Source: Escherichia coli
GTDB lineage: Bacteria; Pseudomonadota; Gammaproteobacteria; Enterobacterales; Enterobacteriaceae
DNA: 64,000 nt
Assembly: GCF_003334335.1 (NCBI RefSeq)
Contig: NZ_QOWQ01000003.1
Strand: one strand, 5' to 3'
Within the stretch, counting starts at the first letter, position 1. Every line of letters starts with the position of its first letter. The position numbers and the translations under genes were made by a program. Below are positions 10,043 to 17,322 of the stretch, piece after piece. The notes beneath the pieces are model-generated. The model saw only the letters and a list, made by a program, of their open reading frames with translations. It searched no databases and had not been told where the DNA came from.

Positions 10043-16106
<6,064 letters not shown>

Positions 16107-16141
16107 TTAATAATAAGTAATGTTTGCGCTGTAAATGTAGA

Positions 16142-16158
16142 TTGCAGGGTTCGTGCCA
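16142..16158 (-). promoter_or_regulatory. sigma54 (-24/-12) promoter of astC
   Basis: Minus strand reads TGGCACGAACCCTGCAA, matching the sigma54 consensus TGGCACG-N4-TTGCW at all but one position; about 70 bp upstream of the astC ATG. Confidence 0.75.
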
Positions 16159-16515
16159 GCCAGTGATAAAAGTGCATAAACGGCGGAGGCTAACTGGAAA
16201 TCAAGGAGTTATAACCAAACCATATGCATTTAAAGTGCATATAAAGTGAATACGTTTGCGATGTGGGTGAATAAAAAGAATAAAAAACGCAATGTTATGC
16301 AGAAGTAAAATATAATTCTGGAATTGTGATCATTGACGAAATTTACTGGAAATTACTGCGCCATTCTGACGCAGCGCGCACTAAAAGCGGGCATTTTTTG
16401 CGCCATCGTTGACATCATTAACAACCATCGATCAAATCACTTAACAACAGGCGGTAAGCAACGCGAAATTCTGCTACCATCCACGCACTCTTTATCTGAA
16501 TAAATGGCAGCGACT

Positions 16516-17322
16516 ATGAAATTTGTCTCTTTTAATATCAACGGCCTGCGCGCCAGACCTCACCAGCTTGAAGCCATCGTCGAAAAGCACCAACCGGATG
16601 TGATTGGCCTGCAGGAGACAAAAGTTCATGACGATATGTTTCCGCTCGAAGAGGTGGCGAAGCTCGGCTACAACGTGTTTTATCACGGGCAGAAAGGCCA
16701 TTATGGCGTGGCGCTGCTGACCAAAGAGACGCCGATTGCCGTGCGTCGCGGCTTTCCCGGTGACGACGAAGAGGCGCAGCGGCGGATTATTATGGCGGAA
16801 ATCCCCTCACTGCTGGGTAATGTCACCGTGATCAACGGTTACTTCCCGCAGGGTGAAAGCCGCGACCATCCGATAAAATTCCCGGCAAAAGCGCAGTTTT
16901 ATCAGAATCTGCAAAACTACCTGGAAACCGAACTCAAACGTGATAATCCGGTACTGATTATGGGCGATATGAATATCAGCCCTACAGATCTGGATATCGG
17001 CATTGGCGAAGAAAACCGTAAGCGCTGGCTGCGTACCGGTAAATGCTCTTTCCTGCCGGAAGAGCGCGAATGGATGGACAGGCTGATGAGCTGGGGGTTG
17101 GTCGATACCTTCCGCCATGCGAATCCGCAAACAGCAGATCGTTTCTCATGGTTTGATTACCGCTCAAAAGGTTTTGACGATAACCGTGGTCTGCGCATCG
17201 ACCTGCTGCTCGCCAGCCAACCGCTGGCAGAATGTTGCGTAGAAACCGGCATCGACTATGAAATCCGCAGCATGGAAAAACCGTCCGATCACGCCCCCGT
17301 CTGGGCGACCTTCCGCCGCTAA
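16516..17322 (+). CDS. xthA: exodeoxyribonuclease III
   Basis: ATG at 16516 ([14 protein letters not shown]...) gives 268 aa; the ORF-track start at 16504 is a 4-codon extension. Confidence 0.92.

Follow-up and report, generated by a model that had tools for sequence, protein, structure and literature searches.

The astC-xthA intergenic region

The window analyzed here, a stretch of 64,000 nucleotides, is part of the Escherichia coli chromosome, and the region under study is the control region of the arginine succinyltransferase operon astCADBE. The astC and xthA genes, annotated as succinylornithine transaminase and exodeoxyribonuclease III, respectively, are divergently transcribed and separated by an intergenic region of 445 bp (16071-16515), inside which the control sites of Table 1 fall. 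Of 5426 complete E. coli genomes, 5425 contain a match to the 801 bases around these sites, and the matched segment carries annotations for astC and xthA. All positions are those of the window; addition of 1,815,912 converts them to coordinates of NC_000913.3.

For the comparative analysis, the astC locus was collected from 80 Enterobacteriaceae species, and 470 nt upstream of the ATG were aligned. The alignment has 80 rows, namely 79 loci with enough upstream sequence and the window itself; counts given for the sigma54 element refer to loci, and those for NtrC-site invariance, spacing, the IHF consensus, and identity refer to alignment rows.

Table 1. Genes and control elements of the astC-xthA region. 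Centers are relative to the transcription start predicted for the sigma54 promoter; exact coordinates of the NtrC, ARG-box, CRP, and IHF sites are predicted from conservation and motif matches.
Feature	Sequence	Position	Strand	Center	Basis
astC, first gene of astCADBE		14850..16070	-		ORF list, RefSeq annotation, K-12 b1748
Published ArcA-P operator, four direct repeats at 11-bp spacing		16082..16124	+	~+9 to +51	PMC3798270
Invariant element just downstream of -12	CTACATTTACA	16130..16140	-		alignment
Sigma54 -24/-12 element (astCp2)	TGGCACGAACCCTGCAA	16142..16158	-		pattern, conservation, Salmonella orthologue ChIP-chip
Conserved ARG-type half-site, in helical phase with the upstream repeats	TTTATGCAC(T)	16171..16180	-		conservation, TGMAT at 16173
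Predicted IHF site, exact to consensus WATCAANNNNTTR	AATCAAGGAGTTA	16199..16211	+	-73	consensus, conservation
ARG-box-like cluster, three overlapping registers (16262-16245, 16251-16234, 16241-16224)		16224..16262	-		matrix, TGMAT repeats at 11/11-bp spacing
ARG-box-like site	TCTGCATAACATTGCGTT	16286..16303	-	-162.5	matrix, conserved TGMATAAT
Almost invariant element	CCAGAATTATATTTTACT	16304..16321	-		conservation; weak ARG-box match, 5.5 bits
CRP-like 22-mer	AATTTCGTCAATGATCACAATT	16322..16343	-	-200.5	consensus score, conservation
Predicted NtrC site B, inside the palindrome at 16356-16374	TGCGTCAGAATGGCGCA	16357..16373	-	-233	3 mismatches to TGCACC-N5-GGTGCA
Predicted NtrC site A	TGCCCGCTTTTAGTGCG	16377..16393	-	-253	4 mismatches in E. 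coli
Conserved element resembling an NtrC right half-site	GG[C/T]GCAA	16398..16404	-		alignment
xthA, divergent, bounds the region		16516..17322	+		start by K-12 comparison

On the xthA side, a separate conserved block, AGTGCGTGGATGGTAGCAGAA (plus strand TTCTGCTACCATCCACGCACT), lies at 16469-16495, some 20-45 bp upstream of the xthA start codon. This block may contain the promoter of xthA, in which CTACCAT would be a sigmaS-like -10 element.

The sigma54 promoter and the ArcA operator

The near-consensus -24/-12 element reported in the initial annotation upstream of astC is present at 16158-16142 and is kept in all 80 species. Its sequence, TGGCACGAACCCTGCA, differs from TGGCAC-N5-TTGCW (GG and GC 10 bp apart) in one position, where TTGC has its first T replaced by C. 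Measured from the astC ATG (16070), the T of TGGCAC is 88 nt and the -12 GC about 75 nt upstream, and TGGCA[CT]-N5-[CG]TGCA occurs at 87-92 nt from the ATG in each of the 80 Enterobacteriaceae species. The bare pattern, with one mismatch allowed, is found four times in the 64 kb with 3.6 matches expected, which is no excess. In Salmonella, ChIP-chip has shown sigma54 on the orthologous element TGGCACGAATGCTGCAAT, for which NtrC is named as the activator. By gSELEX, peaks were obtained in the astC/xthA spacer both for the RpoN holoenzyme and for NtrC; the same source gives astC as experimentally confirmed. The promoter, astCp2, has been described as weak.

Transcription from this promoter is inferred to start at the A in position 16132, as given by a rule calibrated on glnAp2 that counts 26 nt between the T of TGGCAC and +1. 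The 18 nt following the sigma54 element (TGCAATCTACATTTACAG) are almost invariant among the aligned species, and CTACATT and TTTACA within 16130-16140 are candidate sigmaS/sigma70 hexamers.

Among the three other matches to the sigma54 pattern in the 64 kb is a site upstream of yeaG, TGGCATGAGAGTTGCT (50877-50892, plus strand), which has the same sequence as the sigma54 site given for yeaG of Salmonella; it represents a second sigma54 promoter in the window.

Downstream of the start lies the published operator of ArcA-P. Its reported sequence CAGTAAATAATTCGTTATTTATATGTTAATAATAAGTAATGTT (NC_000913.2, 1830018-1830060; PMC3798270 supplement) is identical to window positions 16082-16124. DNase I footprinting showed protection of 44 bp by ArcA-P, and mutation of arcA derepresses the operon 10.6-fold. 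The leader heptamer TTAACAT is invariant across species because the strongest ArcA repeat falls there. The conserved TAAC...TTGAT sequences at 16190-16228 were also considered as ArcA repeats and rejected, since the published coordinates correspond to 16082-16124.

Two candidate NtrC sites far upstream

The palindrome that had been likened to NtrC-type sites reads CTGCGCCATTCTGACGCAG on the plus strand (16356-16374), with arms CTGCG/CGCAG and a possible extension if one mismatch is accepted. It contains a conserved 17-mer (site B), and another one lies further upstream (site A), which has the form TGCACC-N5-GRCGCG in most genera; together they are the only matches to the NtrC consensus with at most four mismatches in the 445-bp intergenic region. 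The NtrC-type character of the palindrome is supported by the conserved 17-mer and its invariant GC pairs, with the correction that it is one of two sites, the distal of which had been missed. Judging from the aligned sequences, the palindrome is very probably the promoter-proximal member of this pair. The placement rule that gives centers of -253 and -233 also reproduces the established NtrC sites of glnAp2 at -140 and -108.

The pattern of conservation in these sites is specific. Positions G2, C3, G15, and C16 (GC-N11-GC) are invariant or nearly so in both 17-mers in 80 sequences, and at other positions the dyad symmetry survives substitutions, for example in CGCCCCGTTTTGGGGCG (Buttiauxella) and in TGCACCATTCTGGCGCA. 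The distance between the centers of A and B is 20 bp in 76 of the 80 species and 19 bp in the remaining four, which puts the two on one face of the helix, as oligomer assembly would need. As a bare motif, the NtrC consensus with at most three mismatches occurs 30 times in the 64 kb, and weak sites form pairs as often as in simulated sequence (24 observed, 24 simulated). A full third NtrC site upstream of site A was rejected, as only the right half-site at 16398-16404 is conserved and a conserved left half is missing.

NtrC ChIP-seq data (Brown et al. 2014) list astCADBE with 'direct binding'. The 80-bp interval reported for astC in NC_000913.2 converts, with the published ArcA site as the anchor, to 16085-16165, that is, it lies on the promoter and off the proposed enhancer. 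At glnA, glnK, and glnH the reported intervals are likewise within about 45 bp of the sigma54 promoters and off the known NtrC sites; therefore, these data do not locate the enhancer, either way, and we rejected the interval as evidence for its position. The promoter-centered intervals could reflect cross-linking through a loop or a systematic offset.

Candidate ARG boxes in the enhancer-promoter interval

Between the candidate enhancer and the promoter, TGCAT/TGAAT repeats at about 16220-16290 had been proposed as ArgR boxes. Such pentamers (TGMAT) start on the plus strand at 16225, 16236, 16247, and 16268, with another one at 16173, and 16198-16295 is the only stretch of the 64 kb with at least four same-strand copies within 71 bp. 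The sites were scored with a matrix derived from 16 genuine ARG boxes of the K-12 operators of carA, argF, argA, argG, argR, argD, argECBH, and argI. The training boxes score 8.4-22.3 bits, compared with 10.3 bits for the best E. coli astC box (16234-16251), which is among the top nine of the window, and with 4-5.5 bits for the others, namely 16286-16303 (5.4 bits), 16304-16321 (5.5 bits), and 16223-16240 (4.4 bits). In the 74 non-Escherichia species, the mean scores of the registers 16262-16245, 16251-16234, and 16241-16224 are 7.2, 8.7, and 3.7 bits, respectively; the box at 16286-16303 averages 7.6 bits and reaches at least 6 bits in 72% of these species.

Compared with the 18-bp palindrome WNTGAATWWWWATTCANW, the astC boxes have poor right halves and are mostly direct rather than inverted repeats. 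The canonical 3-bp gap is found in the pair 16262-16245 and 16241-16224, which has a low score of 5.2 bits, and the other offsets are 11, 18, and 41 bp. Scores of ARG consensus pairs are 17-18 for astC versus 19.5-24.5 for the biosynthetic operators. The additional half-site at 16171-16180 keeps fixed distances of 27 and 19 bp from its neighboring elements. The assignment to ArgR stands on conserved matches to the ARG matrix, with the qualifications that the range extends to about 16303 and that the boxes are weak direct repeats. The exact registers are uncertain, and the ARG-like sites would occupy 16224-16303, or reach to 16321. In the literature, ArgR is an accessory activator at astC and is not essential.

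A PurR-like box CGCAAACGTATTCAC (16260-16246, minus strand), resembling GCAAACGTTTGC, occurs only in Escherichia and Citrobacter and is a probable coincidence.

The best ARG-box pair of the window, AGTGATTATTCATCATAT-TTA-AGTGCAAAAATATTCAGA (55927-55965, plus strand; 20.9 bits), is found at another locus, where it straddles the stop codon of cdgI (yeaI), with dgcJ (yeaJ) following about 165 bp downstream. At 55828-55843 there is an intragenic sigma54-like sequence, TGGCACGGTTTTTTCA.

CRP-like and IHF-like sites

The CRP-like and IHF-like sites, like the ArcA operator, are additions to the sites of the initial annotation. The best-conserved upstream block of the alignment is 16345-16304, which starts with the CRP-like 22-mer and continues with CCAGAATTATATTT. 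The CRP-like site reads TTCGT-N6-TCACA, so that relative to TGTGA-N6-TCACA the right half is perfect and the left half matches in two of five positions. Its score of 10.0 is the best of the intergenic region; 39 sites in the 64 kb score equally well or better, which is no excess over chance. In 48-50 of the 80 species, the corresponding position of the alignment holds the best CRP-like site, and CRP is on the published list of astCADBE regulators, together with RpoN, RpoS, NtrC, and ArgR. As bare motifs, those of sigma54, NtrC, and CRP are not above chance; the sites are supported by their conservation, by where they lie, and by the literature.

The remainder of this block, 16304-16321, agrees by eye, in an unscored comparison, with 12 of 15 positions of the Lrp consensus, and TATAAT is present on its plus strand (16311-16316). 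The possibility of a divergent promoter formed by this hexamer was dismissed: TATAAT is lost in several genera in which the ARG-like GAAT...TTTTA is kept, and a promoter scan found nothing.

The sequence at 16199-16211 is one of three exact matches to the IHF consensus in the 64 kb. The consensus is exact at the aligned position in 76 of the 80 species, and its four N positions vary freely. As a positive control, the rule was applied to glnHp2, where the IHF site is established in the literature, and gave an exact core, AATCAAGGAGTTG, at -39; upstream of glnA and glnK it finds no exact match. No report of IHF acting at astC was found in the accessible literature. The IHF-like site is possibly the only new site in the region, and it is a prediction.

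Conserved spacing of the control elements

Site A is located 233-235 bp from the promoter in all 80 species, at a median identity of 64%, and every interval between elements is constant within 1 bp in the 80 species, for example 43 bp between site B and the CRP half-site. Outside this segment, the spacer on the xthA side varies between 30 and 118 bp, and the 5' leader is 87-92 nt long. Fixed lengths are the pattern that a stereospecific looped complex would require.

Alternative interpretations

The interpretation of the palindrome as an NtrC site was weighed against its being a chance inverted repeat, or a site for xthA or another factor, with NtrC acting nearer the promoter. That would fit the 30 equally good consensus matches in the 64 kb, the occurrence of pairs at the simulated rate, and the ChIP-seq interval at 16085-16165. 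Against it, the intergenic region has no other 17-mer with at most four mismatches, G2, C3, G15, and C16 are invariant in 80 sequences with symmetrical variation elsewhere, a second site lies at a fixed 20 bp, and the promoter lies at a fixed 213-215 bp. The ChIP-seq argument is weakened by glnA, glnK, and glnH, where the intervals also fall on the promoter and off established NtrC sites. A role as a hairpin or terminator was rejected too, as no terminator-like hairpin was found. We consider a chance or unrelated palindrome very improbable and retain the pair of NtrC sites. The repeats between enhancer and promoter pose a similar question, since the TGMAT copies at 16225-16268 might be direct repeats for a winged-helix response regulator or for Lrp, with ArgR bound elsewhere, e.g. 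at 16286-16321. Four copies on one strand at 11, 11, and 21 bp, a single register reaching 10 bits, right halves AGTGA instead of ATTCA, and pair scores below those of every genuine ArgR operator are all in its favor. On the other hand, ArgR is an accessory factor of the astC promoter in the literature, and about 70% of the 74 species have ARG matrix scores at corresponding positions of the alignment. Occupation of the repeats by ArcA is opposed by the published footprint, in which one 44-bp region is protected on a fragment (-166 to +62) that should cover them, provided that the start is near 16103, as inferred from the '-22 to +22' entry; moreover, the four predicted ArcA repeats map to 16082-16124. 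A regulator other than ArgR at these repeats therefore appears improbable, if somewhat less so than a chance palindrome, and we continue to read them as weak ARG boxes.

The IHF-like site is the element for which an alternative has to be taken most seriously. The WATCAANNNNTTR match at 16199-16211 may not be an IHF site, and the conserved TAAC/TTGAT may instead be an extension of the ArgR contacts or be bound by another factor; we give this explanation a substantial, though minority, share of the probability. The accessible literature yielded no IHF binding at astC, one literature passage is taken to pair astCp with ArgR and not with IHF, and the E. coli site lacks the upstream A/T-rich element common at IHF sites. 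Opposed to this, the conserved positions coincide exactly with the positions of the consensus and the four N positions are free, IHF-assisted sigma54 promoters typically have their IHF site between enhancer and promoter, as would be the case here, and the rule recovers the glnHp2 site, whose core differs in one base. We favor IHF as the cognate factor.

A model of astC regulation

The dependence of the operon on sigma54, NtrC, and ArgR and the ArcA footprint have been demonstrated by others, and the nitrogen- and arginine-dependent control suggested in the initial annotation agrees with this literature on astCADBE. Combined with the predicted sites, they point to a switch consisting of sigma54, remote NtrC, ArgR, CRP, and IHF between them, and ArcA downstream, an arrangement that we regard as highly probable. 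The sigma54 RNA polymerase would form a closed complex on 16142-16158. When nitrogen is limiting, phosphorylated NtrC would assemble on the two weak 17-bp sites, unusually far upstream, and would reach the polymerase by looping the intervening DNA, which may hold bending proteins at fixed positions: arginine-bound ArgR on the weak ARG boxes at about -100 to -162, possibly to -180, CRP probably at about -200, and IHF probably at -73. ArgR bends DNA by 70-90 degrees, and its bending could raise the chance of contact between NtrC and polymerase, which would explain the 'superinduction' by arginine. ArcA-P at +9 to +51 would repress the operon, and one or more sigmaS/sigma70 promoters overlapping the sigma54 promoter or just downstream of it may provide expression in starvation and stationary phase.

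A more far-reaching proposal, based on sequence comparison, is that the enhancer-promoter interval is a rigid multi-protein assembly instead of a simple loop, with the IHF consensus at -73 as a part of it; this is speculative and, on balance, rather unlikely. If IHF binds at -73, it could account for the 'ArgR-independent induction' over an unusually long distance, ArgR and CRP would add further bends, and the nearly invariant 16304-16345 block would include one more contact.

Comparison with known systems

The locus itself is that of astCp2 in E. coli and of the ast control region in Salmonella typhimurium, and nothing in it is different in kind. In Salmonella, Lu and Abdelal reportedly described sites of NtrC, CRP, and ArgR in 1999, with ArgR between the upstream NtrC and CRP sites and two promoters; this order is also the one found here.

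Of the well-studied systems compared, glnHp2 resembles the arrangement predicted for astC in its weak sigma54 promoter, tandem NtrC sites, and bend between enhancer and promoter, and its IHF core is nearly identical to the IHF-like core of astC. They differ in geometry: the NtrC sites of glnHp2 are at about -108 to -134 and its IHF core is at -39, whereas in astC the candidate NtrC sites are about 120 bp farther, the IHF-like core lies at -73 and is oriented the other way, and the extra distance is filled by ARG-box-like and CRP-like sites. With glnAp2, astC shares the activator, the sigma54 mechanism, and, in its candidate sites, the 17-bp dyad type. However, the glnAp2 sites are strong (one or two mismatches), located at -140 and -108 with 32-bp spacing, and not accompanied by an exact IHF consensus, whereas the astC sites are weak (three or four mismatches), 20 bp apart, and at -253 and -233.

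The ARG-box-like sites of astC resemble the biosynthetic ArgR operators (argI, argF, argECBH, carAB, and others) in the 18-bp motif and in TGAAT/TGCAT half-sites in helical phase. A biosynthetic operator has two strong boxes with 3 bp between them, and it overlaps and represses the promoter. The candidate astC boxes are weak, lie 100-180 bp upstream, are spaced irregularly (by 11, 21, and 41 bp), and would have a positive effect.

Conclusions

The control region of astC was already known, and the reading proposed for it in the initial annotation is supported. Its confirmation adds nothing new in kind; the comparison across species contributes predictions of sites at the level of single bases, a candidate IHF site, and a rule of spacing. 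Among these, only the IHF consensus conserved at -73 and the strictness of the spacing are possibly new, and both are predictions. With the predicted sites, the candidate IHF site, and the spacing rule, the architectural model can be tested directly. As a textbook case of signal integration at a sigma54 promoter, the region combines nitrogen (NtrC), arginine (ArgR), carbon (CRP), redox state (ArcA), and growth phase (sigmaS).
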